The notes: generated by a model not told the origin, from the letters alone. Counted from the stretch's first letter, positions 1,275-25,394 are shown. The stretch is 64,000 nt of DNA from an uncultured bacterium (GCA_964535585.1 CAZHTR010000002.1:77169-141168), one strand, 5' to 3'. A program made the numbers and translations.

Positions 1275-2819
1275 ATGATCAAAGTAAGTGTAATCCTCCA
1301 CTACTACAAAGCAAAAGCCTTTAGCGAAGAGCATATAAAGGCGCAAATCGAAGGTATAGCGGGGCAAAGTTATAAGAACATCGAAACCATTATTATTACC
1401 TGCGACAAAAATGATGCAGAGAAGAAATTTGCCGCACTCTCACCAAAATGGGTTGCCTGCCAGGATGATGTTGCCATCAATCTGAATAAAGCCCTGTCGA
1501 TCGCGAGCGGAGAATGGATCTTATTGATCGATAATCGTGACAATCCCGTCATGATGAAAAAAGCCGCAATTGACGGTTTTGTCCTCGGTGCGGAACGTCA
1601 TGAAGATGCGGGGTTATTCTATACCAGCTATGAACTGGAAGATAAGGGCACGGTCAAAGAGCTACACTTGCTGGACCATCATATCGGCCGTGTTCGTGAC
1701 AACATGGATTATGGAAAGGTATATTTCATCCGCAAGACCGCGCTCGAAGCGATCGGCGGAATGGATGAATCGGTAAAATATAATCATTTTTACGATCTGC
1801 GTCTGAAGATATCCGAAAAATATAAACTCTACCGTATCGCCAACCGCTACAGCGGTTCCTATTACCGTGTTGTGGCGGCGGGTAAAAAAGCGGATGTTTT
1901 CGACTATCTCAAGGCGGGAAAGGATATTCAGCTTGAAGCCGAACGGGTTTTTACCAACCATCTGAAACGTATTGGAGCCTATCTTAAGCCCGGCGTGCTG
2001 ATGCCGATTAAAGAAGAGTATAAAGATAAATCCACCCTTAAGGCATCCATTATCATTCCCGTCGGTCACCGTCCCGAATTTATCGGGCCGGCCATTGACA
2101 GTGTTCAGCGTCAGACCGTCCGGGATATCGAAGTTATCGTTATGGTCAACGGGGGCGAAGACGACCCGACGGCAGATGTCGTGCGCAAATACATGGAAGG
2201 CGGAGATAAATATGATGCTTCAAAACCGGAAGTCCGCCTCTGCGTTCTGGACATTAACAGCATCGGCATGTGCTTAAACCTCGGCGCAAAGATCGCCCGC
2301 GGAAAATATTACGTACAGCTGGATTCGGACGATCAGCTGATCGAAGATGCGGTTGAAAAAATCCTCGCCGTTTACGATGCCGATCCGGAGATCGGTATGG
2401 TGGTCGGTTCTTACGAAGTATGGGAAAAACATGCGGACGGGACCATCACCCGTGTGGAAGATATTCCCGTTGTAACGCATGATGAATGGACCGATGATAA
2501 CGGACGCAACAATCTGCTGCGCATCAACGGTGCCGGAGCTCCGCGTTCCGCACGCATTGAAGTGATCAAGAACGCCGGATATTTCAGCATTAACGATGAT
2601 CCCTATGCCCGTAATTACGGTGAAGATTACGAACTGGTGAACAAGGTTGCCGAACATTATAAAATCGGCCGCGTCTGGGATCCCATTTACAAAGTTGTGC
2701 GTCATGCCGGCGGTACGGACCACAGTATTGATCAGCACACGATCGACCGGAACGATAACGCCAAGGATTGGGTTCGTATGGAAACCATTCTGCGGCGGCA
2801 GGCCTTTAATAAAAAATAG
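1275..2819 (+). CDS. Two-domain family-2 glycosyltransferase
   Basis: There are two GT2-like halves (VSVILHYY...SYKNIETIIITCD and ASIIIPVGHRPEF...RDIEVIVMVNGGEDD...VQLDSDDQL). I chose the ATG at 1275 behind AAAGGA over the TTG at 1239 in the ORF track. Confidence 0.8.
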   Translation: MIKVSVILHYYKAKAFSEEHIKAQIEGIAGQSYKNIETIIITCDKNDAEKKFAALSPKWVACQDDVAINLNKALSIASGEWILLIDNRDNPVMMKKAAIDGFVLGAERHEDAGLFYTSYELEDKGTVKELHLLDHHIGRVRDNMDYGKVYFIRKTALEAIGGMDESVKYNHFYDLRLKISEKYKLYRIANRYSGSYYRVVAAGKKADVFDYLKAGKDIQLEAERVFTNHLKRIGAYLKPGVLMPIKEEYKDKSTLKASIIIPVGHRPEFIGPAIDSVQRQTVRDIEVIVMVNGGEDDPTADVVRKYMEGGDKYDASKPEVRLCVLDINSIGMCLNLGAKIARGKYYVQLDSDDQLIEDAVEKILAVYDADPEIGMVVGSYEVWEKHADGTITRVEDIPVVTHDEWTDDNGRNNLLRINGAGAPRSARIEVIKNAGYFSINDDPYARNYGEDYELVNKVAEHYKIGRVWDPIYKVVRHAGGTDHSIDQHTIDRNDNAKDWVRMETILRRQAFNKK

Positions 2820-2833
2820 GCGTATTTAATATG

Positions 2834-2863
2834 AAAAACCCGTCCTCTGAGACGGGTTTTTTT
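2834..2863 (+). terminator. Rho-independent terminator after the GT2 gene
   Basis: Stem ACCCGTC (2838-2844) pairs with GACGGGT (2851-2857) around a 6-nt loop, followed by a T-run at 2857-2863. Confidence 0.7.
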
Positions 2864-2998
2864 ATATCCGGTGCCCGATGATCGGGAGAAATAATTAGGT
2901 GTTGGATTATCCCCTCATTGCATTTTGAGGGAAATCATTGTAACTTAACTGAGCGTTGAATAAAAGGAATACGTATAAAAGCAAAGAACGGAGAAATC

Positions 2999-4192
2999 AT
3001 GGCAAAGACATTATTAGTGGGTATTGACGGGGGCGCAACAAAGATAAGCGGTTGGACGACCGAGGTCAACAAGGACAAGACCTTTATGCTTGGAGATATA
3101 AATGTTGTAAAAGAATACCGCGAATACAGTGAATATATGCCATCTTTCAAGCCGGTTAACATTCAATTGCAGTTGGGTGAAATGAACGAAGACGAGATCG
3201 ATCTGACCGTAGAAGAAAAGCTGCACGGCAAATCCTATATGTATGCAGCCGCGGATGTCATTATTGAACTGGCAAAAAAGGTCGGCGCCGAACGCGTGTT
3301 GGTCGGTATCGGCATGCCAGGACTCAAGTCCAAAGATAAGCGCGGTATTGTTGCGCTTGCCAACGGACCCAGAATGCCGGAATATTGCAAAGTGATCGAA
3401 GAGCGTGTCGGGGCTGCCGGTATTATCATGGACAAACCGATCCATCATCTGGGCAGTGATGCCGACTATTGCGGCATCGGCGAGGAGTACAGCCAGAACG
3501 GCTTGTTTAGAAATGTCGAAAACGCCTATTATCTGGGTGGCGGTACCGGGGTCGCGGATGCCATGAAGCTTAAGGGAAAACTCCTTCCTTTCGATCAGGC
3601 AAAGACGTGGATCGCCAAAGCCTGGGAAATGAAGAACAGCGACGGGAAGTCCATGGAACGCTTTGCATCCTCCAACGGTATTCAGGCTATATACAGTGAA
3701 TTTTCCGACATCCCGGTTCACGAACTGAACGAAAAAGGTGTTTATCCCCCACAGATCATGGACCTGTATGATGAGGACCCCGCAGCAAAACGGACATTCA
3801 ATGATGTCAGTTACAATATCGCCAAACTGCTGTTTGAGCGTATTGTTACCATCTACAGCGGGTGGCGGCACTATTTTGAGTTTGTGAACTCAAATCGAGC
3901 GGATCTTGAAGAGAAACATCCTTACCGCAACATGCTGCTTGACAGCATTATTATCGGTCAGCGTCTGGGCGATCTGCTTGCATCATCAAAAGGCAAAGAT
4001 GTTTTTTACGAACCGTTCTTTGATTTCCTCACTAAGTTCATCGTTGAATGTCCCTATCTTGACGCCAAGTTTAAAAATCACTATCTGAAGGATGATCTTT
4101 TCGATGAAGCGCTCATCAAGACATCCAATTTGCGCGAAGCTCCGGCGATAGGTGCGGGTGTCGATGCATATTTGACGTATCATAAGGATTGA
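2999..4192 (+). CDS. BadF/BadG/BcrA/BcrD-type ATPase (N-acetylglucosamine-kinase-like, ASKHA fold)
   Basis: It shows the phosphate-1 motif LLVGIDGGATKISGW, then VGIGMPGL, then YYLGGGTGVADA. Confidence 0.65.
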   Translation: MAKTLLVGIDGGATKISGWTTEVNKDKTFMLGDINVVKEYREYSEYMPSFKPVNIQLQLGEMNEDEIDLTVEEKLHGKSYMYAAADVIIELAKKVGAERVLVGIGMPGLKSKDKRGIVALANGPRMPEYCKVIEERVGAAGIIMDKPIHHLGSDADYCGIGEEYSQNGLFRNVENAYYLGGGTGVADAMKLKGKLLPFDQAKTWIAKAWEMKNSDGKSMERFASSNGIQAIYSEFSDIPVHELNEKGVYPPQIMDLYDEDPAAKRTFNDVSYNIAKLLFERIVTIYSGWRHYFEFVNSNRADLEEKHPYRNMLLDSIIIGQRLGDLLASSKGKDVFYEPFFDFLTKFIVECPYLDAKFKNHYLKDDLFDEALIKTSNLREAPAIGAGVDAYLTYHKD

Positions 4193-4198
4193 TTTCGC

Positions 4199-5095
4199 GT
4201 GAGCGAACAACTTATAAAATTAAAATTCAAGGGGAATCGCAGGGAGTACTATTATAATCCCATGCAATTTCCCATTCAAGCGGGCGACTGCCTCGTAGTG
4301 GAAACCGACAAGGGTGAAGATTTTGGTATCGTTGTTGCCACGGCAAAGGATTATCAACCCAAAACACCCCCGCCGCCTTACCAGATCCTTCGTAAGGCCA
4401 ATGACCGGGACATGCAGACCCTGCGGCAAAACCGTACGGACGAAGATGATATCTTAAGTCAAAGCCGGGAAAAAATACGGGAACTGAACCTGCAGATGAA
4501 ACTCATGGATGTTGAATATCAGCTTGACCGTAAAAAACTGTCCTTTTATTATACCGCCGACGAGCGGGTGGATTTCCGTGAACTCGTACGGGTTCTTGCA
4601 GGGATGTTTCGGACCCGTATTGAAATGCGGCAGATCGGCGTGCGGGACGAAACCAAACGATTGAACGGGGTCGGGGCATGCGGCATGCCTTTGTGCTGCA
4701 GCACTTTTTTGGAGTCCTTTGAACCGGTCAGCACTCAGACCGCCAAGGATCAAAATCTTCCGATGAACCCCCTTAAGCTCAGCGGACAATGCAGTAAACT
4801 GAAATGCTGCCTTTTGTACGAACACGGTTTTTATATGGAAGAGCTCCATAAATATCCTCCCGTCGGGGAGCCGTTGCTCAAAAATCAGCGCAAAGGCTAT
4901 ATTCAGAAGATCGATATTTTTACCCAGACGGTCACCTGTGATTTTGAGGACGACACCCGCGAGGTCATTCCCGTCAGTGAGATCCGGGATTATCTGAGCG
5001 CCGCCCAAAGTCAGGGCCTAAAGAAACTGACGCATGTATTGCATGACCTTATGGGGAATGACGCAAGAGCATTAGAGCAAATAGAAGATAAATAA
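4199..5095 (+). CDS. PSP1-domain protein (YaaT/RicT-like)
   Basis: GTG start. The block KLSFYYTADERVDFRELVRVLAGMFRTRIEMRQIGVRDETKRLNGVGACGMPLCCSTFL is typical of the PSP1 C-terminal domain. Confidence 0.8.
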   Translation: MSEQLIKLKFKGNRREYYYNPMQFPIQAGDCLVVETDKGEDFGIVVATAKDYQPKTPPPPYQILRKANDRDMQTLRQNRTDEDDILSQSREKIRELNLQMKLMDVEYQLDRKKLSFYYTADERVDFRELVRVLAGMFRTRIEMRQIGVRDETKRLNGVGACGMPLCCSTFLESFEPVSTQTAKDQNLPMNPLKLSGQCSKLKCCLLYEHGFYMEELHKYPPVGEPLLKNQRKGYIQKIDIFTQTVTCDFEDDTREVIPVSEIRDYLSAAQSQGLKKLTHVLHDLMGNDARALEQIEDK

Positions 5096-5686
5096 ATGAA
5101 AAGTATCGCTGTTACCGGCGGGCTGGGATCCGGCAAATCCGCCGCCCTTGGCATCTTTTACCAACTGGGCGCCAATACTCTCAGTGCGGACGATATTGCA
5201 AAACATTTATTGCAGGTCAATCCCGATCTGATCAGGAGTGTCAAAGAAACTTTTGGGGAAGCCTGCTATCTTGACGGTGAACTGCAGACGCATATATTGG
5301 CGGCACGCGCTTTCGCCACCCCGGAAGAACAAAGGACCCTCAATGCGCTGGTCCACCCGCTGTTAAGAACATATCTGCACAAATACATCTCCGCGACCAA
5401 AGCCGTCCCGGGTATTTTAATGGTTGAAGCAGCGATCCTTCTGGAAGCGGGTTTTGAGGATCTGTTCGACAAGACCCTTCTGATTACAGCCGATAAAGAT
5501 ATCCGTATTCAACGGGCTGTCCGCGACGGGCATTTGCCGGAGGAGGACATTCTCCGGCGCATATCGCTTCAGATGCCGGAAGAAGAAAAGCGCGCACGCG
5601 CGGATCATGTGATCGAGAATAACGGCAGCCGGGAAGATCTTTTTGAGACATGTTCCGCCTTCTGGGAAATGATCCACAAAGAATAA
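5096..5686 (+). CDS. coaE: Dephospho-CoA kinase
   Basis: N-terminal P-loop IAVTGGLGSGKSAA, a length of 196 aa, and a start directly abutting the upstream stop. Confidence 0.85.
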   Translation: MKSIAVTGGLGSGKSAALGIFYQLGANTLSADDIAKHLLQVNPDLIRSVKETFGEACYLDGELQTHILAARAFATPEEQRTLNALVHPLLRTYLHKYISATKAVPGILMVEAAILLEAGFEDLFDKTLLITADKDIRIQRAVRDGHLPEEDILRRISLQMPEEEKRARADHVIENNGSREDLFETCSAFWEMIHKE

Positions 5687-5714
5687 TAAACACTCATATT
5701 CGACAGAATAGTGT

Positions 5715-7433
5715 CTATGCGGACATTCGGGGATATTTCATCTTCGGTTTTCCGGCATCCTCCGCATGCTTTCCGAAAATGAAAAGCAAGGCCGTAACGG
5801 CAGCCGCTCCCACCAGGAGACAGATATACACCGGAACGCCCAGAGAAACGGGAATAAAGCAAAAAATGATCGCGATCAGTGCAACAGGTAGTGCATACAT
5901 GATCTGTGTGTTCACATGCGCAAGATGGTCACAACCCGCACCCATGGAAGACAGGATCGTCGTATCGGAAATGGGCGAACAATGATCCCCGAAAATAGCA
6001 CCCGTAAGTACGGAACCGATGTTCATATAAAGAAAAACCGGTTCGGGCGATATGGCATAGGCCAGCGGTATGGTCAGCGGCATCAGAATACCCATAGTAC
6101 CGTAGGACGTGCCGGTGGCAAAAGAGATAACGGCAGCCATGATAAATATGACCAATGCCAGCAGAAAAGGAGGCATTTTCCCACTGATGAGACCGACAAG
6201 ATAATCGGCGGTACCCAAACTGCCGATGATGCCGCTGAGCGACCAGGCCAGGATCAGGATCGTAACCGTTATGACCATTGTACCCGCACCTTTTATCCAG
6301 GCATTTACGGCTTTTTTAATGGAGAATATCTTTTGTCTGCTTCCCATGAAAATTGCCACAAGACAGGCCAGCAGTGCTGCCTGACTCAGGGCCAGACTGG
6401 CATTCGACTCACTGAAACATTCCCGGAGTGTCGCAAAGGAAAAAGAGGACGTTACGATCGCAAGCTGTTCGGCATTGGCGGCAGCGAGGATGTTCTGATA
6501 TCCGTTATAGAACAGCGCGGCAAAGGCAGCCACGATCAGAGTGAGTACCGGAACAAGGGCGTTGGATACTTTCAGGGGACCCTTCCTGCCGGTGCTGAGT
6601 TTTTCCGTATCCGCCGCGGACATGATGGAAGCATCATCGGCAAAGACCTTTCCTTCAAGGCGTGCACGGCGCTCGGCCCTTAACATCGGACCGAAATCCC
6701 GCCGCGTTTTCGCACTGACAAAAATAAAGAGCAGAATAAGCAGACTGTAGAAACGATAGGGAATGGTTTGAATAAAAACACTGTAGGCATTCGCTTCGAT
6801 CCCGAGAGCGGCATATCCCTGCCGGATCAGTCCGAGTTCGTATCCGATCCAGGTTGAGATCAGCGCGATATCCGCGATAGGTGCTGCGGTGGAATCAATG
6901 ATAAATGCCAGTTTTTCCCTGCTGACTTTCAGTTTATCCGTGACCGGCCGCATGATCGGTCCGACAGTGAGCAGATTAGCATAATCGTCAAAGAAAATAA
7001 AGATCCCCATCAACCAGGTGTAGATCTGCGCACTTGCCGCGGACCGGGCTTTTTTGGCCATTTTCTCCGCGATGGCACGCGTGCCGCCCATGACGGAGAT
7101 CAGCGCGATCAGCCCGCCGATGGTAAATGTCTGAACAACAATACCCGCATTCCAGGGATCGGAGAGGGCGTTGATCATTTCCTGTGTCATTAACACAAAT
7201 GCCCGGATAATGGCCGAGGCCCAGTGCCCCTCGCGCAGCGCAACCAGATACGCACCCGAAAAAATACCGGTGAAAAGAGAGAAGACCACGTTTTTGCTGA
7301 TAAAAGCGAGCGAAATGGCGACCAGGGGAGGAATGATGCTCCATATTCCCCAGCCATCGGGGAAAAGCGGAAGCAAAAAAGGCATCAGAACGATCAAAAG
7401 AACAAGGAATACAAGCGTAATTATTTTTTTCAT
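5715..7433 (-). CDS. NhaC-family Na+/H+ antiporter
   Basis: The 572-aa protein is polytopic and carries the conserved GDHCSPISDTT...CDHLAHVNTQ block. It is a paralog of the fragment at 1..335. Confidence 0.85.
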   Translation of the reverse strand: MKKIITLVFLVLLIVLMPFLLPLFPDGWGIWSIIPPLVAISLAFISKNVVFSLFTGIFSGAYLVALREGHWASAIIRAFVLMTQEMINALSDPWNAGIVVQTFTIGGLIALISVMGGTRAIAEKMAKKARSAASAQIYTWLMGIFIFFDDYANLLTVGPIMRPVTDKLKVSREKLAFIIDSTAAPIADIALISTWIGYELGLIRQGYAALGIEANAYSVFIQTIPYRFYSLLILLFIFVSAKTRRDFGPMLRAERRARLEGKVFADDASIMSAADTEKLSTGRKGPLKVSNALVPVLTLIVAAFAALFYNGYQNILAAANAEQLAIVTSSFSFATLRECFSESNASLALSQAALLACLVAIFMGSRQKIFSIKKAVNAWIKGAGTMVITVTILILAWSLSGIIGSLGTADYLVGLISGKMPPFLLALVIFIMAAVISFATGTSYGTMGILMPLTIPLAYAISPEPVFLYMNIGSVLTGAIFGDHCSPISDTTILSSMGAGCDHLAHVNTQIMYALPVALIAIIFCFIPVSLGVPVYICLLVGAAAVTALLFIFGKHAEDAGKPKMKYPRMSA

Positions 7434-7434
7434 T

Positions 7435-9246
7435 TTACTTCAAGAGGACCATTTTTTGAGTTAGCGGAGATCTCCCGGTTATATCGAGAACACAAATATA
7501 AATTCCGGAAGGATGGGCGGAAGCATCCCAGACAAGCGAAACGGAGCCCGTACCGCGCAATGGCGGCGTCAGAGTGGTTACCCTGTCGCCGCGCATATTG
7601 TATATGTGTACCTGCGCCGTCCCCTGCGCCGGAATGCCGTTCAGCGTATAGCGAATATTGACAAGAGGATTAAAGGGATTGGGATAAACCTGTAATACGG
7701 CATGATCTGCCGGCAAAACGGGCGATATATCCGTTGCGGGACGCGGTATGCTCATCCGGAGATCATCGAGTATCATATAGCCGGCAGAGGAATTGTATTT
7801 AAAGCCAATATGTACAGGAAGGTTTTTAAATGATCTTAAATTATAAACGTATCTGTTCCAGTTCGTATTGTTCGGTTCGATGGTACCGAGTTCGACCGTA
7901 AAACTGCCGCGCAGGGTATCGGTCAGCGAAAGCAGGACTTTCCCGCTGCGATTGGCGGCGGACATTTTTGCCCAGACCGCCAGTTCGGCATTGTCGTTAT
8001 CGGGAATGTGTATCTTCGGAGAGATCAGCCAACTGTTGCTCGCGCTGATGCCATATCCGTAATCGCCGGTATAGCTTGCGGTATAATAACCGTCACCACC
8101 ATAGATCCATCCCTTGAATGCGGTGCGCTCAAAGTCATTGTACGCAAAATAAATGGCGGGATCTGTGTTCGGACGAATACCGAAGACCGCTCCCTGCATT
8201 TCGGAAAAATCATAACCTTCCGCAGGTGTCAGCGCACTCAGGAGGAACCACCCGTCATAATTTCCGCCCCAGCCCCAATTAATATGATAATACGTTTTGG
8301 TATCCGTTATCTGATATCCGTCACACAGATAAGCATGTCCTCCCATATCTCCCTGACCGCGATACGGCACGGGAAAGCCGCTATCCAGCTCTTCTTTCAG
8401 CATATTTGACCATGTTGCGGTGTGATCCGACCTGTTGGCATGGAACATGCCGGGATGATAATCAAAATAACTGACCATAGCATAAAGCATATCATCGTAA
8501 GACGCATAGGATCCGTCCGTCCGGAATTCCATTTCAACGGATACCGCAGACCGGTACAGCAGTCCGGATACCTCTTTGATCTTATCCGCGGCAGAGCTTG
8601 CATTCAGACTATTGGGCATATTGTCCCAGTGAAAGGCCGTTGTATCGAACCAGGCGGTAAGCAGACTGTCCGTCCCGGCATCATAATAGCTTCGGCGTCC
8701 GATGCCGCGCGGAGGATGTTCATAATAGCGCATCAGTTGCCCCATGACCACCGCGACACATCCGGCATACGCTTTGGTTTCTGTGCCGGCAAACCTTGGG
8801 AACTGATCATTATAGTATGGAGATTGATTCCATGTGCTGGTGATAAGGGGTTGCACCTCGCTGCGGACGGCCGGTTTCGAAAAGCCGGGTTTCATATACA
8901 GATCCCAAGAGGCATGCCTGTCCCGAAGCTGCGGGAGGATTTTTTCCATTTCACGGCCGTATACACTGCAATGGTCGATAAATGCCGGATGCAAACGATC
9001 TGCCGCCTCATCATCCGAATAGGCAAGAACAGCGGGGAAACGGTCATCTGCCGCCATGAGCAAAAATCCACCGCCTTCAAAGGTTACCAAATGCAGATAC
9101 TCCGACATTGAAATATATTCTGCTGTGATCTTCTCGGGATAAAAACGTTCCGCAAGGGACATTGCCGTTTCCTTGCTGACCGGTGCGGCGATCAGTACGG
9201 AAAAGAAAAAGAAGAGGATCAGAAATGTATTTTTAAATCTTTGCAT
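7435..9246 (-). CDS. C10 (streptopain-like) cysteine peptidase with a T9SS C-terminal sorting domain
   Basis: Signal peptide present. Catalytic-Cys region WNQSPYYNDQFP...AGCVAVVMGQLMRYYEHP and His region GGHAYLCDGY...HINWGWGG. The C-terminus is VYPNPFNP...KMVLLK. Confidence 0.8.
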   Translation of the reverse strand: MQRFKNTFLILFFFFSVLIAAPVSKETAMSLAERFYPEKITAEYISMSEYLHLVTFEGGGFLLMAADDRFPAVLAYSDDEAADRLHPAFIDHCSVYGREMEKILPQLRDRHASWDLYMKPGFSKPAVRSEVQPLITSTWNQSPYYNDQFPRFAGTETKAYAGCVAVVMGQLMRYYEHPPRGIGRRSYYDAGTDSLLTAWFDTTAFHWDNMPNSLNASSAADKIKEVSGLLYRSAVSVEMEFRTDGSYASYDDMLYAMVSYFDYHPGMFHANRSDHTATWSNMLKEELDSGFPVPYRGQGDMGGHAYLCDGYQITDTKTYYHINWGWGGNYDGWFLLSALTPAEGYDFSEMQGAVFGIRPNTDPAIYFAYNDFERTAFKGWIYGGDGYYTASYTGDYGYGISASNSWLISPKIHIPDNDNAELAVWAKMSAANRSGKVLLSLTDTLRGSFTVELGTIEPNNTNWNRYVYNLRSFKNLPVHIGFKYNSSAGYMILDDLRMSIPRPATDISPVLPADHAVLQVYPNPFNPLVNIRYTLNGIPAQGTAQVHIYNMRGDRVTTLTPPLRGTGSVSLVWDASAHPSGIYICVLDITGRSPLTQKMVLLK

Positions 9247-9374
9247 GAGTATGCCCGTTTATCGAAAGATAAGTTAACATATCCCCGGAAAGGATAAAAC
9301 AATTTTATCGCAGAAGCCTGTGCCTCATGCTTCAAACAAATTTCATTGTACGCCGGAATATCGTATATTCGTGC

Positions 9375-10256
9375 ATGTACAAAAGCATTACCTGTAAGAC
9401 GGCACTGAACCCCCTGAACAGTTCCTATCTGCCCTATCGATGGGATCTGAACATTTACCGCGGCTGCGCCCATCGCTGCCGATATTGCTATGCGCTGTAT
9501 TCCCACGAATATCTGGGAGCGGGTGATTTTTTCGGCGAAATATTCATTAAAGAAAATATTGCTGAAATGCTGGAGAAAAAATTATACTCCCGCAACTGGA
9601 AACATGAAACGGTCAACCTTGGGGGCGTCACGGACAGTTACCAGCCCATTGAAGCGGATAGAAAGCTTATGCCGGATATTTTACGGCTTCTGATCAAATA
9701 CCGGACACCCGCCAGTATTTCAACAAAGTCCGTTCTTATTTTGCGCGATCTGCCGCTGTATGAGGAACTGGATAAGGTTGCGGGTGTCGATATCGCTTTC
9801 AGCATCACATGCCATGATGAAAGCATCCGTAAAAAGATCGAGCCTGCATCCGCATCATCAGCCGCGCGCTTTGAGGCGTTGAGGGAAATAAACCGGGCCG
9901 GTATCCGCAGCGGGATCTTGTTCATGCCCGTCCTGCCGTTTATAACGGACAGTGAACAGAATGTCCGGGCAATATACCGGAATGCGCAGGAAAGCGGCGC
10001 AGAGTTCGTTATCCCGGGGCTACTGAACCTGCGCGGAGCGACCCGCGGTCACTTCCTGAATTTTATCAGAAACACCTTTCCTGACCTGTATCCGCGATAT
10101 CAGAAGCACTACGGTTCGCGTGCCGAAAGGACCCCGTACCGAAACGCGTTCTATCACATGCTGGCGGAAATAAAAAACGCATATCCCCTCCGGCGGAAAA
10201 AACATGTACGCATTTCCGGGCAGAAACAACTGGAGCTGTTCGGGGCCGGGTATTAA
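9375..10256 (+). CDS. Radical SAM protein (SplB/COG1533-like)
   Basis: CxxxCxxC cluster NIYRGCAHRCRYCYA. I chose the ATG at 9375 (MYKSITCKTALNPL). The ORF track starts at 9327, which remains possible. Confidence 0.75.
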   Translation: MYKSITCKTALNPLNSSYLPYRWDLNIYRGCAHRCRYCYALYSHEYLGAGDFFGEIFIKENIAEMLEKKLYSRNWKHETVNLGGVTDSYQPIEADRKLMPDILRLLIKYRTPASISTKSVLILRDLPLYEELDKVAGVDIAFSITCHDESIRKKIEPASASSAARFEALREINRAGIRSGILFMPVLPFITDSEQNVRAIYRNAQESGAEFVIPGLLNLRGATRGHFLNFIRNTFPDLYPRYQKHYGSRAERTPYRNAFYHMLAEIKNAYPLRRKKHVRISGQKQLELFGAGY

Positions 10257-10327
10257 GTTAAAAAATGTTTTGACATATAGTACTTTTTCTTATATTCGTT
10301 GGACATAAACAAATCATGGAGGGAAAC

Positions 10328-11623
10328 ATGAAAAAACGCATTTTGTTCTGTCTGTTCAGTGTGCTGATGTTACTGTCGGTACTGAGCGCGAACGATTTTG
10401 TCAAGACCGGTATCAGTGTCGGCCCGCTGCCGTCTGTCGCCTATAACACCGACACCGGTTTTCAGTACGGGCTACTGGCAAATATCTTTTTGTATGGTGA
10501 TGGTAAGATCTATCCGGACTACTATCATAATTTTTATGTCGAGTGGAATCAAACAACAAAAGGAGCAGGCCTGACACAGCTTACCTACGACTCCAAATAC
10601 CTGATCCCCGGCATTCGCATGACGGCCGATCTCAGTTATGTCGTTAAGCAGGCCTGGGGTTTCTACGGATTCAACGGAGCGGAGTCCCAATACAACCCGG
10701 AATGGGTGGACAAAACAAGCGACGACTACAGAAATTCGCTCTATTATGCCATGAAACGCAATCAGTTGCGCTTTACGGTGAATTTTCAGGGCAACATTAC
10801 CGATCAAAGCCTGCGCTGGCTGGGCGGTTTGGGTGTGATGAATTTTGATGTCGGCTCCGCCTCAACCACACGCGCCTGGGATACAAGCTTTGTGGACCAG
10901 AGCACCCTCTACGACGAATTTGTAGACTGGGGTGCCATCGATGCGGCAGAAGCCGACGGCGGTTTGGTCAGCTACGTCAAGGCCGGTGTTGTTTATGATA
11001 CGCGCGACAATGAAGCCTGTCCCATGACCGGTATGTGGGAAGAACTGATAATGACCTATGCCCCCGGATTCATCGGAGAAGGCGGCGGCTGGCTGCAGCT
11101 GTCTGCCATTCACCGTCAATATTTTACGCTGGTACCCGATAAATTATCACTGACCTACCGTTTGGCATATCAGGGCATCATCGCCGGCAAGCAGCCTTTC
11201 TATCTGCAGGGCAATTTGCCGGATTCAAGGAATAATCGCGACGGTCTGGGCGGCAGCAAGAACGTGCGCGGCATCATGGGTTCCCGGCTTGTCGGAGACG
11301 GCTATCTATACGGTAACCTCGAGGCGCGCTGGAAGATCGTCCGCTTTCAGTGGATCGGTCAGAGTTGGTACTTTGGCGTCAACCCCTTCCTGGATGCGGG
11401 TATGGTTGTGCAGCCCTATGATTATGATAAATCCGGTATCGAAGCCCTTGCGACAACAGCAGATTATCTGACAGGCAATAAAGAAACACTGCACCTGGCC
11501 TACGGCATGGGTATCAAACTGGCCATGAACGAGAACATGATCATTTCGGTCGATTACGGATTTGCCGGCAGCCCGAACGACGGCGGTACCGGACTGTATA
11601 TCGCCCTGGGATATTTGTATTAA
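10328..11623 (+). CDS. Omp85/BamA-TamA-family outer-membrane beta-barrel protein
   Basis: Signal peptide MKKRILFCLFSVLMLLSVLSA sits behind GGAGGG. It has VVYDTRDNEACPMTG (a surface-antigen motif) and an aromatic C-terminus GYLY. An alternative ATG lies at 10316. Confidence 0.65.
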   Translation: MKKRILFCLFSVLMLLSVLSANDFVKTGISVGPLPSVAYNTDTGFQYGLLANIFLYGDGKIYPDYYHNFYVEWNQTTKGAGLTQLTYDSKYLIPGIRMTADLSYVVKQAWGFYGFNGAESQYNPEWVDKTSDDYRNSLYYAMKRNQLRFTVNFQGNITDQSLRWLGGLGVMNFDVGSASTTRAWDTSFVDQSTLYDEFVDWGAIDAAEADGGLVSYVKAGVVYDTRDNEACPMTGMWEELIMTYAPGFIGEGGGWLQLSAIHRQYFTLVPDKLSLTYRLAYQGIIAGKQPFYLQGNLPDSRNNRDGLGGSKNVRGIMGSRLVGDGYLYGNLEARWKIVRFQWIGQSWYFGVNPFLDAGMVVQPYDYDKSGIEALATTADYLTGNKETLHLAYGMGIKLAMNENMIISVDYGFAGSPNDGGTGLYIALGYLY

Positions 11624-19411: not shown

Positions 19412-20731
19412 TTATTCCATTACATCCACAATTTCATTATTCTTATATAATTTTGGCAGAAATTTAGACTTAATTCTAAACTGGCTTCTCCTCTTAATCG
19501 ATGGATTTGTTGAAATATTTTCAAGTTTAATACCAGGGTCATAATAGATGTTTCCTTGTCCCATTTGAGAAAGAAAGAATTGAAAGTCAGTCCCAACTCC
19601 AAGTATTACCCGATTACCATATTTATACTTCCTGTTTCCGGCTGTTATTGATTGAGAGGGGACATAGCAGGCATTATTGTGTTTTCTGTTCCAGTGTAAC
19701 AGCATGGAAGAAAAGCTCCAGGAAGCTGTTTCGTTTTCATTCTGATCTATTAAAGCAATTTTTCCATTCGAATTTCTTATTTTTCCGGTTTCAATATCGA
19801 AACCAATAATTCTCATTTCCAATTGAGTTGTAGGATGAATTTCTCCTACTTTATGTATGCCACCAAAATTTAATCTGTCCGGACGCCCCATTTTATCAGG
19901 ATACCCATAAGTTCTAATAAAATAATCTGCACCCCGGGTTTTGTAAATTCCATCAGTTGGTTCGGGTGTCATCAATGTAATCACAGAAGAATTCAATCTT
20001 TCAAAATTTGTAACGCCAAATTGTTTAATTTCCCATCCCATAAAATCGGGTTCAGAATAACCATTGGGTGTTACTCCTAATTCAGCCTCTAAGGTATAAC
20101 CTCCGCAATTCGAAGACCTGCAAGGTAAAATATTTCCTTCAGAATCAAGTCTTTTTGAATCAATCCAATTCAGTTGATGAATTCGCGATAATTCATTTAA
20201 TAAAATTACTCTGCTGTTTTCAGATTTAGGTAAGTCAATAATCGAAAAAACCCCATGTTCTCCCAAATTTCTTTCTGCATTAAATTCATTAGCAATTATA
20301 GATTCCGGGTGTGAAACATATCCTAAAATTCGGCCTTGCCTGTCAACCGATAAAAAAAGAACTCTGTCAGCCAATCTTTGAGTCATTAACTCTGATGGCC
20401 CCCCCCTTGTCCCTTTTAAAAAACCTGAGAATCTTACTTCCGGGTATTTGGGATATAAAATTAACTGTGAATGAGGGGCAACTATGAGATTCCCATCATT
20501 ATCAATCCAAGAGAAGTTTACTTTTGCTTTAAATCTTTCTCTTTCCCAATCCCCTGCTTCTTCAGTCTCAATACCGGAAATCGGCAGAACATTTAAAATA
20601 TCAAAGCTTCCGGCTAAATATACCTGATTCTTTGAATTATCATTGGGTGAGAGTTTCTTTACATAGACTGATTTACAACCATTTTCAATCAGTAATTTTT
20701 TAAGATTAGTTAGATTCATTGAAGTCTTCAA
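19412..20731 (-). CDS. Type II restriction endonuclease: MvaI/BcnI-like catalytic domain with an N-terminal EcoRII-N-like extension
   Basis: The C-terminal half has PD-x4-E-x-K ([12 protein letters not shown]), then [13 protein letters not shown] and RKYKYGN blocks in the order I remember for R.MvaI. The N-terminus has [11 protein letters not shown]. Its start overlaps the dcm stop. Confidence 0.65.
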
Positions 20732-21890
20732 AAACTTTTATTACTTGTTTTGCGACAGCATGTATTAACGGTGAAACAACTGAATTTCCAAATTGACGAT
20801 ATGCCTGATTATCTGAAACAGGAATAATAAATTCATCAGGGAAACCCTGGAGTCTTGCACATTCCCTTGGAGTTAAACGCCTTGGATTGATCCCATTTTG
20901 AGGAATTAGTATTTCAGAACCATCCTTGTAATATCTTGCACTAATTGTTCGACTTATTCCATTTAAATCAGTTAAACCGAAACCAAACCCGTTTCCTTTT
21001 GCTTTATGTTTGGCAGCATAGTCTTGTAAATATTTCCAGAGTTTGTCTGAAAGCGTATATTTTGGATCAGGTTTTTCTTCCAAAATGTCATTTAATACCA
21101 TCTTTTGTTCGGGGAGTTTTGGGAAAACGAAAGATTCCTTTCCGTGAAATAGTTTTTTATCAAATCCAACAATAATAATGCGTTCCCTGTGCTGAGGTAC
21201 AAAATGTTTACCATCTAAAATGCGGTAATGAACCGAATAACCCAATTCATCCAATGTGTTATAAATAATTTTAAAAGTTCTGCCTTTGTCATGTGCAACC
21301 AGGTTCTTAACATTTTCGAGCATGAAAGCTTTGGGCCGTTTTTCTTTTACAATTCTGGCAATATCAAAAAACAGAGTGCCCTGAGTCTCATCTAAAAACC
21401 CATGTTTTTTACCTAAACTAATTTTTTTTGAAACCCCTGCAATTGAAAATGGCTGGCACGGGAACCCGGCTAATAAAATATCGTGACTTGGAATACTTTT
21501 CTCGTTAATTACAGTAATATCTCCAAATGGCACTTCCCCAAAATTTGCTTCATAGGTTACTTTGGCGAACTTGTCATATTCTGAAGAAAAAACACATTTA
21601 CCCCCGGCTTTTTGGTAGGCTAGTCTTATTCCGCCAATTCCCGCAAAAAGATCAATAAACGTGAATTTTGGATTCTTCGGAGTCGGGAAGGGAATATCCC
21701 ATTTAAAATCTAATTTCTCCTGTTGACCCATATTGTATTTGGCTAAATATGCAATCGCCGGTTCTTCAAAATATTGAGAAGCGCCGGTTCCTAAATTATG
21801 AAAATAGTGAGTCACAAAGGCTTGTTCATTTCCAGCATCTTTTAATGGCTCAATATTAATTATTTCCTTTAATTCAGAATATTTTAACAT
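20706..21890 (-). CDS. dcm: DNA cytosine-5 methyltransferase, Dcm/M.EcoRII-like
   Basis: [43 protein letters not shown] is very close to the E. coli Dcm motif I region. It also has [20 protein letters not shown] and QFGNSV. Confidence 0.9.
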
Positions 21891-22306
21891 AATTTCCTAT
21901 CTTTAATCACTTGTTCTACTTTATAAACACAAAGATCAGGATTATATTTAATTTCTTCGCCCCAAAATCGTATTACCTGCCAACCATTTTTCATCAAAGT
22001 TTCGTTTACGATCTTATCCCGTTCAATATTCCCCTCAATCTTTTTAATCCAGAACTCATTATTTGTCTTTATTCGGTGTTTTTTAATTTCCCAATCTTTT
22101 CCGTGAAAATACTCGCTATCACAGAAAATAGCAATTTTATATTTTTTAAAAGTGAAATCCGGCTTACCAAAAACATTCTTATTGTTTTTTCTGTATCTTA
22201 ATCCGTTCGACCATAAGGCTTTTCCAAGCAATTTTTCAATTTTAGTACCCTTGCTTTTTATGGCTCTCATATTTTTTCGTCTCTGTTCTTTTGTCAACAC
22301 ATCCAT
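21884..22306 (-). CDS. vsr: Very-short-patch repair endonuclease
   Basis: The 140-aa protein has [19 protein letters not shown]...[23 protein letters not shown]. It overlaps the dcm start by 7 nt. Confidence 0.9.
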
Positions 22307-22579
22307 GACACAAAGTTACTCTATTTTTTATAGATCGGCAATAAATAGGCTTGTTTTTATAAACCCAGGGAGCATCTTAATTTTGGATACTTTTAAGGAA
22401 ACATTTTGATAGGAATATTTTTTTTATGGACCGGATTGCCATGGAAACAAAGATTGGGGATCGGACCATTAATATACATACCATCCTCTTGAAGTTTTGT
22501 CCCAATAGAATGATTTTCAATATGTTTTTTCCGGAAGAATCTGCGATCTTTCGGTTTTTGGGTCGGGGATTGGGTTAGG

Positions 22580-22618
22580 GATGATTGGGAGAAAAAGTAT
22601 GGGGAGATTTATAAATTG
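22580..22618 (+). pseudogene. Relic copy 2 of the last 13 codons of the M32 carboxypeptidase gene
   Basis: It translates as DDWEKKYGEIYKL, matching 9 of 13 residues of DYLEKKYGDIYRL. A stop codon lies 23 codons upstream in the same frame, so this is only a fragment. Confidence 0.5.
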
Positions 22619-22660
22619 CAAGAATCAAAAAATACTTTTTTTTTGACTGCCGGGCTTCGT

Positions 22661-24304
22661 TCATTCCAATAGTTTTTTTATTCGCGCTTTTATATTTTCG
22701 TATGTTGTATTTAGGCTTTGTTTGGCAATAGAGGTAAGCAATGCGGTATGTGCCATTGCATCTCGGATAGGTTTGTATGTCTTCGCATCTCGTATAATTG
22801 CTGCTTCCCTGTTTCTATCACTCGGTCTGTCTGCCGTAATAGCTAATTCATTCATAGAAAGATACAGCAAGTCCTCGTTGTTTTGTCTGATTTCAAAACT
22901 CACATTACCAATATTTCTTGCTTCGTTTTCTCTTCTTTTATAATCAGCCAACTCATTAGTAAAATGTGAGTAGTCCTTATTCTTATGCTTAATAAATTTT
23001 CGTAGTAAATTCTCTGAAACAAAGCACTCTGCGTAAGAGGATAAATTAAATTGAGCATCTTCGCCCAATGACAAAACCCAATCATCAACTAAACTTCGGT
23101 TTGCTGAACCACTTGGAGGGACAAATTCATCGGCAACTGCATTAAATAGTTCCTTTGACCTTCTTTCCTTCCTCGTTTTCCTTGTATTATCAGGGTCTCC
23201 ATCTTGATTAATCAAATCTCTCCAAATGTCCCAATCAGCCATGATGGAAGCAACTATAGACTTCAATTCATCTAAAAACAATTTGAATAATGGGTCGTCT
23301 GATAAAACTCCTTCTCGACTACTTGTGAATCTATCTTTGCCAGAATCAAGAGCATTGTAATGAATTTGTCCGTAGAGATAGCTTTCAACAACTCTAGTTG
23401 AAGGAACGTGTCTCAACAAATCCTTTTCTCGTAATCTGCCATTAACATATAGGTCAACAGAAACAGTTTCGGTTGTCTGTTTAATTTTTAACTGTGAAGG
23501 TTTTTCAACCGAGCCAATGAATCCAGTTATTGGCAACGATGATTCGATTTTTTTATACTGCTTGATATGTTCACTTGTTGAAGAAATTTTATCTTTGAGA
23601 TAAGGGTCCTCCATAGAATTTATCTGCCAAACAAACTGTGTACTTAATGAAAGGTCATTGAGTTCATTCAATGTAATTGGGTCATCATTTAAATAAATTT
23701 TAAAAGAGTTGTCAATCAGAGAAAATCTAAAAAAAAGTGCTATTAATTTTCGGATATATTCAATTCGATTTCGAATTCCATCATTAATATCTTCAAAGTA
23801 GATTATCGTTCCCTTCTGCATACCCTCCTTTTTTGAATCAAAGACAGACAGGTCAATGTTTTCAAGAGGATATTGTTGAGGTGTTAAATCGTCATTTATT
23901 GCATTATCAAGATTTCTGTTGTCAATGATGCCCCCAACAAAACCTGTATTTAGCGTTTTTGTAGCAATATGAATTCGCTTTGCACACGATAAAAGTGCAA
24001 GTTTTCCAATCCCCTTCCGTCCAATGAACGGACGATTATTCTCGGTCTTTTCAACTCCATCTTTACGCTTTGTATAGCCAATTTTCAGAAACTTATTTTG
24101 AAAATCATCTGTTGTCATCCCATCACCATCATCTTTAATAATGAGATAATTTTTATCTCTGTCAATATAAATACGAACCTCTTTAGCATCAGCATCCCAA
24201 GAGTTTGATATGGCTTCTCCAAGTACCGTGATGAAGTTTCTATAAAGATTTCTCCCCAGATGATTAAGGACACTCAAAGAAATATTAAATGTAAATTTAT
24301 CCAT
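22661..24304 (-). CDS. GHKL (MORC/Hsp90-like) ATPase with a C-terminal HEPN-like domain
   Basis: Bergerat-fold motifs EAISNSWDA (N box), IIKDDGDGM (G1) and GRKGIGKLALL (G2). The C-terminal tail has RDAMAH (Rx4H) encoded at 22748..22765. Confidence 0.75.
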   Translation of the reverse strand: MDKFTFNISLSVLNHLGRNLYRNFITVLGEAISNSWDADAKEVRIYIDRDKNYLIIKDDGDGMTTDDFQNKFLKIGYTKRKDGVEKTENNRPFIGRKGIGKLALLSCAKRIHIATKTLNTGFVGGIIDNRNLDNAINDDLTPQQYPLENIDLSVFDSKKEGMQKGTIIYFEDINDGIRNRIEYIRKLIALFFRFSLIDNSFKIYLNDDPITLNELNDLSLSTQFVWQINSMEDPYLKDKISSTSEHIKQYKKIESSLPITGFIGSVEKPSQLKIKQTTETVSVDLYVNGRLREKDLLRHVPSTRVVESYLYGQIHYNALDSGKDRFTSSREGVLSDDPLFKLFLDELKSIVASIMADWDIWRDLINQDGDPDNTRKTRKERRSKELFNAVADEFVPPSGSANRSLVDDWVLSLGEDAQFNLSSYAECFVSENLLRKFIKHKNKDYSHFTNELADYKRRENEARNIGNVSFEIRQNNEDLLYLSMNELAITADRPSDRNREAAIIRDAKTYKPIRDAMAHTALLTSIAKQSLNTTYENIKARIKKLLE

Positions 24305-25394
24305 TATTTTTTCCTTTTAAATGTTTTATTATGCTTTTCCCAATTGCTAAACCGAGATTTACAGGGACAGCATTACCTATATGGGTGCCAGTTTGCGTGA
24401 GCAAAACATCATTATTCTTATCAACAAACTTATACTTCGCTGGGAAACTCTGAAGAATCGAAGCTTCTCTGATCGTTAATGCCCTGTCTTGTTCCGGATG
24501 GCCAAAACGCCCAGTTCCATAGTTATAAAATTGTGTTGTTATGGTTGGTGCTGGTTCATCCCAAGACATTCTTCCATAAACCGCTTTGTAGGTTTTTCCT
24601 GTTTCTTTTTTATGACAATCTAACCAAAGGCTTTTATCCCAATCTTCCCAAGTTCCATTAGGAAGTGATGATTTTATTCTTTTAAGATTAATAGCTGTTA
24701 GTTTAGTTGTAAAATGAAGAACATCAGACTTACTTCTCTCTCCGTTCCCTAAGGGTTCTAAATGACCAATTGCTTCACGAACAGTTTTATAGTTGTTCTT
24801 TTTATGCGTAGGCGGTATGAGATCAATTATTCCAAATCTTGACGCTAGCAGCACAAGTCTTCTTCTTTTTTGGGGGATGCCATAATCAGGGCAATATACG
24901 TTTTTGTAATTGACCCGATATCCATTATTTTCTAGTTGAAATACAAAGTCTTTAAAAATTTGCTTGTTTGATAAATTGGGTACATTTTCCATCGAAATAA
25001 TATCTGGAGTTGTTTCTTTTATTAATCTACTGAATTCATTTAACAAATTCCATTTATCGCCTTGCTTACTTCCTTTAAGTTTGTTCGCGTGAGATGAAAA
25101 GGGTTGGCAAGGAGCACAGCCAACCAAGAGTTTTACCTCATCATCTTTCCAATATTCTATAATTTGTTGACCTGTTACTTCGGTAATGTTGGCACAAATA
25201 AATTTTGCATTATTATTTGTCTCATAAGCATATTTACAACTTGTATCTAAGTCTATCCCCGCCCTAATGGTAATGCCTGATTTTTTTAATCCGTGAGTTA
25301 ATCCGCCCACACCACAAAACAAGTCAACTCCTGAAACAGTTGGAATTGTTATTTTTTTATTCTGTTGTTTTTGTGTAGTTGGTTTTATTTTCAT
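24297..25394 (-). CDS. DNA cytosine-5 methyltransferase (second, unrelated specificity)
   Basis: Motifs VDLFCGVGG, GCAPCQPFS, ENVPNL, QKRRRL and GNAVP. Its 3' end overlaps the GHKL gene start by 8 nt. Confidence 0.9.
   Translation of the reverse strand: MKIKPTTQKQQNKKITIPTVSGVDLFCGVGGLTHGLKKSGITIRAGIDLDTSCKYAYETNNNAKFICANITEVTGQQIIEYWKDDEVKLLVGCAPCQPFSSHANKLKGSKQGDKWNLLNEFSRLIKETTPDIISMENVPNLSNKQIFKDFVFQLENNGYRVNYKNVYCPDYGIPQKRRRLVLLASRFGIIDLIPPTHKKNNYKTVREAIGHLEPLGNGERSKSDVLHFTTKLTAINLKRIKSSLPNGTWEDWDKSLWLDCHKKETGKTYKAVYGRMSWDEPAPTITTQFYNYGTGRFGHPEQDRALTIREASILQSFPAKYKFVDKNNDVLLTQTGTHIGNAVPVNLGLAIGKSIIKHLKGKNNG

Follow-up and report, generated by a model that had tools for sequence, protein, structure and literature searches.

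A methyltransferase and a GHKL ATPase with a predicted HEPN domain form a possible methylation-gated defence cassette in an uncultured bacterium

Introduction

What can the partner of a DNA methyltransferase do when it resembles a restriction enzyme over only part of its length? The question is raised by a gene pair at positions 22,661 to 25,394 of a 64,000-nucleotide stretch of DNA from an uncultured bacterium (GCA_964535585.1 CAZHTR010000002.1:77169-141168), the whole of which is hereafter called the window. In this pair, a gene for a 5-methylcytosine (m5C) DNA methyltransferase (MTase) runs directly into a gene for a GHKL ATPase whose C-terminal domain carries the Rx4H signature of HEPN RNases. 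An earlier reading made from the sequence alone (the sequence-only reading) had proposed an uncharacterised, methylation-linked defence module composed of an MTase, a MORC-like ATPase and a HEPN effector. Our follow-up analysis of profiles, conservation, predicted structure and gene neighbourhoods leads us to favour, on balance, the view that the cassette is a methylation-gated two-gene defence or addiction module of the paraMORC/GHKL restriction-modification (R-M) type with an RNA-cleaving effector.

Related designs have been described. R.HgiDII consists of an N-terminal GHKL domain and a C-terminal domain of unassigned fold, and four further subfamilies of restriction endonucleases (REases) with a GHKL N-terminus, including a GHKL+Ymh combination, were reported with it (Orlowski & Bujnicki 2008, PMC2441816). 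HgiDII and BbrUII are parts of m5C R-M systems that recognise GTCGAC (PMC5867850, PMC5829577). A 2013 study reported paraMORC ATPases fused to HEPN domains in R-M neighbourhoods and proposed a PrrC/RloC-like action for them (PMC3710099). Since such designs were catalogued computationally in 2008 and 2013, the concept of a GHKL-HEPN R-M system is not categorically new. We found no experimental study of any GHKL-HEPN system in the literature, and to this extent the module is indeed uncharacterised, as the sequence-only reading held; yet residues 4-364 of the ATPase protein are homologous to the documented BbrUII/HgiDII REase family. That homology, the low-GC island around the pair and the second m5C system inside the island were all missing from the earlier reading.

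Results

Gene pair and predicted C-terminal effector domain

Both genes lie on the minus strand, to which all coordinates of the pair refer. The upstream gene (24297..25394) encodes an MTase of 365 amino acids (aa) from the M.HgiDII/M.BbrUII-like lineage, and the downstream gene (22661..24304, the end coordinate taking in the stop codon) encodes a 547-aa GHKL ATPase-HEPN fusion protein, the HEPN part being predicted. The two open reading frames (ORFs) overlap by 8 nucleotides (24297..24304; ATGGATAA), which hold the MTase stop codon and the ATPase start codon, the ATG of the ATPase lying within the final MTase codons. The identical overlap recurs in the compared loci L001, L003-L007, L013 and L014, including members at ~27-40% identity. 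The MTase-ATPase pair is probably a translationally coupled operon, judging from this arrangement.

The C-terminal all-alpha domain of the fusion protein (aa 403-547; 22664..23098) is, from its AlphaFold model and conservation, a probable HEPN (Swt1/Abi2-like) RNase effector. It is preceded by a linker (aa 365-402; 23099..23212) that is variable in length and sequence among relatives and comprises a charged DGDPDN...KERR segment and one helix, placed at aa 378-394 by the AlphaFold model. Two motifs stand out in the domain: the Rx4H motif R514-DAMA-H519, within IRDAMAHT (22748..22765), and the motif E431-N432-L-L-R435 in helix 1 (23000..23014), a candidate second part of the active site that aligns at the start of the Swt1-like HEPN profile. 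Among 36 divergent full-length relatives, with C-terminal identity down to ~27%, residues E431, N432, R435, R514 and H519 are 100% conserved, while N420, Y424, R473, Y481, L487 and T520 are conserved above 90% (94% for T520). Additionally, R514/H519 and E431/N432/R435 are invariant in two further alignments, R514 and H519 are intact in 7/7 viral-contig homologs, and the residue after R514 is always D or N in all relatives examined. Since R514 and H519 are invariant across all of these relatives, the Rx4H is not a chance motif.

We modelled the C-terminus alone from a diverse alignment, and this AlphaFold run reached a mean predicted local distance difference test score (pLDDT) of 93.7 and a predicted template-modelling score of 0.82. 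The model consists of helices H1 (403-440, containing E431, N432 and R435), H2 (446-465), H3 (502-518) and H4 (525-546), with an insert (466-501) of short helices between H2 and H3; R514 lies near the end of H3 and H519 opens the following loop. According to the published census, the HEPN fold is an up-down four-helix bundle in which an insert separates helix 2 from helix 3, and its signature is a conserved Rx4-6H with a polar residue usually directly after the R (PMC3710099). The predicted structure has this topology. A full-length AlphaFold run with 53 close homologs (pLDDT 59, C-terminus below 50) was unusable for the effector domain and was set aside.

Profile searches point in the same direction at low scores. 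PF18731 (HEPN_Swt1) was matched by 3/55 family members, with a best E-value of 6.8e-4 and all scores under the 27.5-bit cutoff, and the family consensus aligned with profile positions 8-107 of 115 (E 0.013). One member matched DUF3644 (E 0.1), which is counted among the HEPN families in the census (PMC3710099). Swt1-like HEPN and DUF3644 thus appear, through weak matches, to be the nearest named families. The Ymh HEPN family PF09509 had no match in the window protein or in its 55 relatives even at E <= 1, and NCBIfam returned no match for the C-terminal consensus. No nuclease family was found at the C-terminus in Pfam, NCBIfam or PADLOC (no PD-(D/E)XK, HNH, GIY-YIG or PLD). A search of residues 365-547 against 1.84 billion representative proteins returned 187 relatives. 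Nearly every full-length one is 550-590 aa long and ends in the domain; because nearly all share this layout, the domain is confined to the GHKL-fusion architecture. Together, the conserved motifs and the model make it likely that the C-terminal domain is a catalytic HEPN, an assignment that falls short of formal significance and is not formally proven. Thus far the sequence-only reading proved accurate about the overlap, down to its coordinates, about the Rx4H in IRDAMAHT and about the missing PD-(D/E)XK, HNH and GIY-YIG motifs.

N-terminal ATPase platform

The N-terminal module (aa 4-364; 23213..24295), delimited by the NCBIfam model NF050001, comprises a GHKL ATP-binding domain (Pfam core aa 24-118) and a middle domain. 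The protein matches HATPase_c_3 (PF13589) with an E-value of 8e-19 and 68 bits (cutoff 25). In the same 36 relatives, here down to ~30% identity, the Bergerat residues E30, N34, D58 and K97 are 100% conserved, and G60, G62, G98, G100, G165 and T166 are 94-97% conserved. The ATP-binding motifs I-IV (ExxxN, DxGxG, GxxGxG and GT) are intact, and the ATPase is predicted to be active.

The module is related to a restriction enzyme, and the relationship ends where the module ends. Specifically, residues 4-364 match NF050001, the model of the BbrUII/HgiDII restriction enzyme, with an E-value of 1e-87, covering profile positions 1-363 of 659. The score of 295 bits lies under the family cutoff of 550, so the window ATPase is not a BbrUII/HgiDII family member. 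A bona fide member, encoded on a Halobaculum plasmid, reaches 801 bits across profile positions 1-659; by BLASTP it is 32% identical to the window ATPase over aa 4-358 and shows no similarity beyond, the two C-termini being unrelated. Likewise, the REBASE-derived REase_II profiles of PADLOC (PDLC03419/03485) match aa 2-362 only.

Of the two descriptions that the sequence-only reading gave of this part, the full Bergerat fold is well supported by the profile match and the 94-100% conservation of its motif residues, and the term MORC-like is not, the GHKL core alone being verified. The Foldseek neighbours of the N-terminal part, taken from the low-confidence full-length model, were TRAP1/Hsp90, the MutL N-terminal domain and MORC2, with little to choose between them (E 1e-8 to 2e-7). 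In a profile search of the PDB with the ATPase, only aa 41-121 of the GHKL core matched solved structures, and MORC3 (E 0.3) and MORC2 scored no better than Hsp90 or MutL. In the MORC/paraMORC module, an S5-fold transducer follows the GHKL domain and contributes a conserved basic residue (Iyer et al. 2008). R290, R292 and R330 of the window protein, 97-100% conserved, could provide such a residue, in a part of the chain where the fold is modelled poorly (aa 219-337 have a pLDDT below 50 in the full-length AlphaFold model).

Two side observations concern this module. Weak matches to sacsin models were seen (NCBIfam P_loop_sacsin, E 1e-5, aa 27-113; Pfam SACS, E 0.004, in one family member). The 32-kb Escherichia phage PhiR44_1 encodes a protein annotated 'ParaMORC3' (PV340563.1 7999-9069) that is 35% identical to ATPase residues 1-362 and corresponds to the N-terminal platform only.

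Methyltransferase and its likely target

The upstream protein is a complete C-5 cytosine MTase by its sequence, as the sequence-only reading had said. It matches PF00145 with an E-value of 1e-60 and a score of 206 bits, against a cutoff of 22, across positions 3-324 of the 324-position profile, and TIGR00675 (dcm) with 135 bits, above the cutoff of 100.65. Its translation carries all five motifs listed earlier, FCGVGG, PCQPFS, ENVPNL, QKRRRL and GNAVP (motifs I, IV, VI, VIII and X).

The MTase is 50-53% identical to the MTases paired with true BbrUII/HgiDII enzymes and 44-57% identical to the MTases of divergent members of the window's own family, and is therefore equally close to both. The target-recognition region (motifs VIII-IX) is conserved between the window MTase, the MTases of its own family and the BbrUII/HgiDII partner MTases. 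Because this region matches that of the BbrUII/HgiDII partners, we infer the same or a similar target, so that the window MTase probably acts on GTCGAC or a closely related site.

A locus from a Cytophagales metagenome-assembled genome (L002, 42-2748) encodes an ATPase 88% identical to that of the window, next to an MTase only 50% identical that keeps the same target-recognition motifs. This disparity suggests recombination between the MTase gene and the ATPase gene.

Exchange of C-terminal modules

The MTase and the N-terminal ATPase module occur with several different C-termini. The Halobaculum enzyme carries the BbrUII/HgiDII module, as its full-profile match to NF050001 indicates; the C-terminal half of BbrUII/HgiDII itself has no Pfam or PDB match, and a reading of it as PD-(D/E)xK, prompted by the segment 'HPWLL...IIDLKRP', is not claimed here, being without support in Pfam or PDB sequence searches. 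In Neisseria gonorrhoeae, an apparently pseudogenised version carries a Ymh-HEPN domain (PF09509, E 2.9e-25). In Listeria monocytogenes, the C-terminus is an SpbK-like TIR domain (PDB 9phb, E 2.9e-6), and a published variant has a histidine-kinase-like C-terminus (PMC8011034). The window's own family adds the probable Swt1-like HEPN, on the evidence of the PF18731 matches and the AlphaFold model.

The Neisseria locus (L018, 2598-5135 of NZ_CP119142.1) is frameshifted, with the MTase in two ORFs and the ATPase split from the Ymh domain, and is probably the R.NmeAIP-type system described in 2008. The Listeria locus (L019, 2419-5414 of NZ_CP030101.1) encodes an MTase whose target-recognition region is the same and, after it, a GHKL protein of 644 aa; the TIR-like C-terminus of the latter is not called by Pfam and is without annotation in the record.

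From this module-swap series, the effector role is best assigned to the C-terminal module, and that of sensor or engine to the N-terminal part that all share. Abortive infection classically employs TIR and HEPN domains as effectors, and neither cuts DNA. Because sister families bear a Ymh-HEPN or an SpbK-like TIR, an abortive-infection type of output is made more plausible for the window's family as well.

Distribution and mobility of the cassette

In 19/20 distinct loci the gene immediately upstream of the ATPase encodes an m5C MTase, which agrees with the synteny that the sequence-only reading had made a test of its proposal. The 19 loci are seven genome loci (Vulcanimicrobiota, Cytophagales, Chlorobiaceae, Bacteroidota, Sediminibacterium, Bacteroidales and Taibaiella), a Paracoccus conjugative plasmid, three divergent relatives with only 27-31% C-terminal identity, seven IMG/VR viral contigs and the window itself. 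The exception (L008; ERZ24894575:ctg20684l, 5001-11290) has three GHKL (HATPase_c_3) paralogs of 551, 561 and 558 aa around one m5C MTase; upstream, that locus encodes an SNF2 helicase and a 448-aa protein without annotation. No third gene was conserved across the loci examined.

The gene for the very-short-patch repair endonuclease Vsr is an intermittent neighbour. It adjoins the pair in the window, in L005 and in 4/7 viral contigs (L020-L023), and most loci are without it. Proximity to R-M components such as cytosine methylases and Vsr is a feature of the MORC/paraMORC module (Iyer et al. 2008), and the window's family shows it. In the viral contig L020 (IMGVR_UViG_3300023486_000225, 1293-11324), the order MTase, ATPase/HEPN, Vsr is found between the genes for the large terminase and the portal protein. 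Strong PHROG matches identify these flanks as a genuine phage head-packaging module, and insertion between terminase and portal is a typical moron position.

The ATPase has 4683 database relatives, the top 120 of which are full length and 72-100% identical across several phyla, a pattern that implies frequent horizontal transfer. The family extends over Bacteroidota, Chlorobiota, Verrucomicrobiota, Pseudomonadota, plasmids and phages. The cassette is mobile, being found in a low-GC island, on a conjugative plasmid and in phage.

Directly downstream of one divergent family member (L013), a gene at 6670-11367 on the minus strand encodes a 1565-aa protein with DUF4011, an SF1 helicase (AAA_11/AAA_12), an MTES_1575 Vsr-like REase and DUF3320. 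The giant DUF4011-helicase-MTES_1575 architecture often bears a Swt1/Abi2 HEPN (PMC3710099), and none was detected in this copy. Having no PF18731 match, it was rejected as an independent seed for the Swt1 HEPN.

Genomic context in the window

The gene pair sits within a low-GC island of ~6 kb, with a GC fraction of 0.35 against ~0.50 in the rest of the window. At least 24 metagenome contigs encode an identical ATPase protein with matching chromosomal surroundings, and for this reason the island can be regarded as fixed in the uncultured lineage. A 29-aa ORF is called across the ATPase stop codon in identical metagenome contigs. There is no tRNA gene in the window and no recognisable integration signature for the island.

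The same island holds a second, independent m5C R-M system (19412-22306, minus strand), in which the gene ends overlap. It consists of Vsr (21884..22306; 140 aa; PF03852, E 5e-31; TIGR00632 above cutoff), a Dcm-like MTase (20706-21890; 394 aa), the start of which is overlapped by the upstream Vsr gene, and an MvaI/BcnI-family endonuclease (19412-20731; 439 aa), in which the Pfam nuclease domain begins at residue 178 and the N-terminal ~177 aa are without family assignment. Vsr may be an optional accessory that is common to the MTase-ATPase pair, or part of the neighbouring Dcm system. Between the ATPase stop and the Vsr start lies a non-coding gap of 354 nucleotides (22307-22660), in which neither a terminator-like hairpin on the minus strand nor an Rfam match was found. 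Over the island, Rfam gave a single sub-threshold match to a eukaryotic small nucleolar RNA, which was dismissed. Counts of promoter-like and terminator-like sites were not above those in shuffles.

Discussion

Our data suggest how such a cassette could work. The MTase would mark host DNA, probably at GTCGAC or a near variant. The GHKL ATPase may form a dimeric clamp, driven by ATP, and engage sites that lack the mark, either on incoming DNA or on host DNA after methylation lapses. Nucleotide-dependent closure of the clamp would join or re-orient two HEPN domains into a composite RNase site, which could cut RNA (tRNA, rRNA or mRNA) independently of metal. The predicted result is a halt of translation, leading to abortive infection or to the killing of cells that lose the cassette (post-segregational killing), instead of cutting of the invader's DNA. 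The RNase activity, the sensing of unmodified DNA, the phage protection and the abortive outcome are all inferred. The cassette looks like an R-M system whose R subunit attacks RNA and not DNA. Of the definition of a Type II R-M system, the MTase half is present; that the partner cleaves DNA is made less likely by its HEPN-like effector.

Several results weigh against this reading. The window's own C-terminus has no HEPN match in Pfam at E up to 10, where only noise appears, and the Pfam HEPN scores of its relatives stay under curated cutoffs. Foldseek with the C-terminal model against PDB and BFVD gave 0 matches at E <= 0.001; the PDB match of highest probability (0.38) and highest template-modelling score (TMt 0.51) was the HEPN structure 2q00, which ranked third by E-value, at 1.8, and is not significant. 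The C-terminal profile found no HEPN among PDB sequences and hit only a spurious ferritin helix, and hhalign against Ymh-HEPN, with a shallow profile of 5 relatives, aligned only the Rx4H motif (E 0.11). What stands of the earlier HEPN proposal is the invariant Rx4H and a confidently modelled HEPN layout, and what does not is a significant match by fold or profile, either in Foldseek or in the family databases. Besides, the ATPase protein has no obvious DNA-reading domain for recognising an unmethylated site, and HgiDII and BbrUII, the characterised enzymes most closely related to it, cut DNA. The window is only weakly depleted in GTCGAC (5 sites, at 30726, 38494, 42851, 45012 and 45126, none within the island, against 12.7 +/- 4.2 expected from shuffles); not significant alone, it was dropped as evidence of specificity. 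We found no paper on RNase activity, toxicity or phage protection of any family member.

The main rival, though an unlikely one, takes the protein for an ordinary Type II (or ATP-modulated Type II-like) enzyme that cuts DNA, whose C-terminus would be a novel DNA-recognition or DNase module, or a HEPN repurposed for DNA. It draws on the match of residues 4-364 to the BbrUII/HgiDII model and to the PADLOC REase_II profiles, on a partner MTase whose target-recognition region is that of true BbrUII/HgiDII systems, on the strict linkage of a classic M-R operon and on the statistical weakness of the HEPN assignment. The restriction-enzyme similarity is confined to the ATPase half, however, and the C-terminal ~300 aa of BbrUII/HgiDII are absent. 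In the domain that replaces them, helix 3 ends in the HEPN signature, an invariant R[D/N]AxxH, and HEPN catalysis uses the 2'-OH of RNA and cannot act on DNA. Moreover, PD-(D/E)XK, HNH, GIY-YIG and PLD families are not detected, and the sister families carry non-DNase effectors (TIR and Ymh-HEPN).

The C-terminus might instead be an inert helical domain for dimerisation or regulation, in which the Rx4H is structural and the effector is supplied in trans by an unlinked or host protein, an arrangement we consider improbable. GHKL proteins usually require a C-terminal dimerisation domain, and neither structure nor profile searches link the C-terminus significantly to a catalytic family. Some HEPN domains are indeed non-catalytic binders, but these typically lose the Rx4H (PMC3710099), and here the R, the H, the polar residue and E431/N432/R435 are all kept. 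Nor is any third gene conserved across the loci that could stand for such an effector.

MutL stimulates Vsr in E. coli, and the GHKL core resembles the MutL N-terminal domain; the ATPase could in this way be a MutL-like accessory of very-short-patch repair, stimulating or coordinating Vsr, which would nick the T:G mismatches that arise from deamination of the 5-methylcytosine made by the MTase, with a C-terminus for dimerisation or nucleic-acid binding. Even with Vsr adjoining the pair in the window, L005 and 4/7 viral contigs, and with the recurring MORC/paraMORC-Dcm-Vsr association (Iyer et al. 2008), this is very improbable, since most loci lack Vsr and nearly always have the MTase, five charged or polar residues are invariant down to 27% identity, which is unexpected for a purely structural domain, the sister families bear toxin-type domains, and the BbrUII system is documented as a transformation barrier (PMC5829577). 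The invariant polar residues, the patchy Vsr and the toxin-type sister modules together make both this accessory role and an inert C-terminus less likely than a methylation-gated cassette with an RNA-cleaving effector.

The preferred reading can be placed among known systems. Nearest are BbrUII/HgiDII (NF050001; SalI isoschizomers, GTCGAC), which resemble the window's pair in the N-terminal ~360 residues, in the order of MTase then ATPase and in MTase lineage, and differ in that their own C-terminal ~300 aa are replaced in the window protein by a HEPN-like domain of ~145 aa. Systems of the paraMORC-Ymh kind (R.NmeAIP type; PMC3710099, PMC2441816) share the design, in which an m5C MTase precedes a GHKL ATPase that ends in an Rx4H domain, but their HEPN belongs to another family, and between the window protein and the Neisseria protein the N-terminal modules reach only ~27% identity. 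The Listeria GHKL-TIR protein (R.LweSORF291P type; paraMORC4 of Iyer et al. 2008) comes with the same MTase target-recognition region and has a GHKL module 27.5% identical over aa 3-365, its C-terminal effector being an SpbK-like TIR and not a HEPN. In VcSduA (GHKL-Shedu, paraMORC3), an N-terminal GHKL ATPase controls a C-terminal effector in one chain, as in the window protein, and phage defence requires both ATPase and nuclease residues (PMC12137116). The VcSduA effector, in contrast, is a PD-(D/E)xK DNase (DUF4263) and not a HEPN, and it acts without a methyltransferase and protects without killing the host (PMC12137116). No other experimentally validated defence protein of this single-chain layout was found in the literature.

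PrrC sits in a Type I R-M locus, where it is silenced by the restriction complex, and is not known to be directly paired with an m5C MTase. PrrC (with EcoprrI) and RloC combine an NTPase with a C-terminal HEPN RNase tied to DNA R-M and are the functional analogy proposed for paraMORC-Ymh proteins, but their NTPases are of the ABC/Rad50 type and not GHKL (PMC3710099), and we found no sequence relationship to the window protein. Among eukaryotic proteins, sacsin likewise joins an ATP-binding domain of the GHKL/Hsp90-like kind to a HEPN at its C-terminus (PMC3710099); it is a giant multi-domain chaperone without a methyltransferase link, and its similarity is weak and limited to the ATP-binding core.

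New here are a HEPN-like domain, as predicted from sequence, that is absent from Pfam, NCBIfam and PADLOC; the place of its family as direct sister to a documented restriction-enzyme family, with a shared MTase lineage and within an effector-swap series; and the finding that the family is abundant and phage-carried. A broader model, which we put forward tentatively and rate slightly below an even call, is that a common GHKL sensor, inherited together with one MTase lineage that probably targets GTCGAC, detects whether DNA is methylated and triggers an effector that can be exchanged. BbrUII/HgiDII would use a DNase for this, the Listeria protein a TIR, the Neisseria protein a Ymh-HEPN and the window's family a Swt1-like HEPN not catalogued before. 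In that last case unmethylated DNA would license an RNase, and the result would be an epigenetically gated form of abortive infection or post-segregational killing that is spread as a moron by phages and plasmids.

These findings also bear on annotation, since the protein is given the name 'ATP-binding protein' by current pipelines, which could also wrongly class it as a Type II restriction enzyme, and the highly conserved family runs to thousands of database entries. The natural domain-swap series, with DNase-type, TIR and two HEPN modules, offers a set for probing GHKL sensing and effector switching. So far, a link from methylation to RNA cleavage has been only indirect (PrrC-EcoprrI) or proposed on paper (paraMORC-Ymh). 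If the C-terminus is a methylation-gated RNase, this family would directly couple the self/non-self logic of R-M to an abortive-infection effector.

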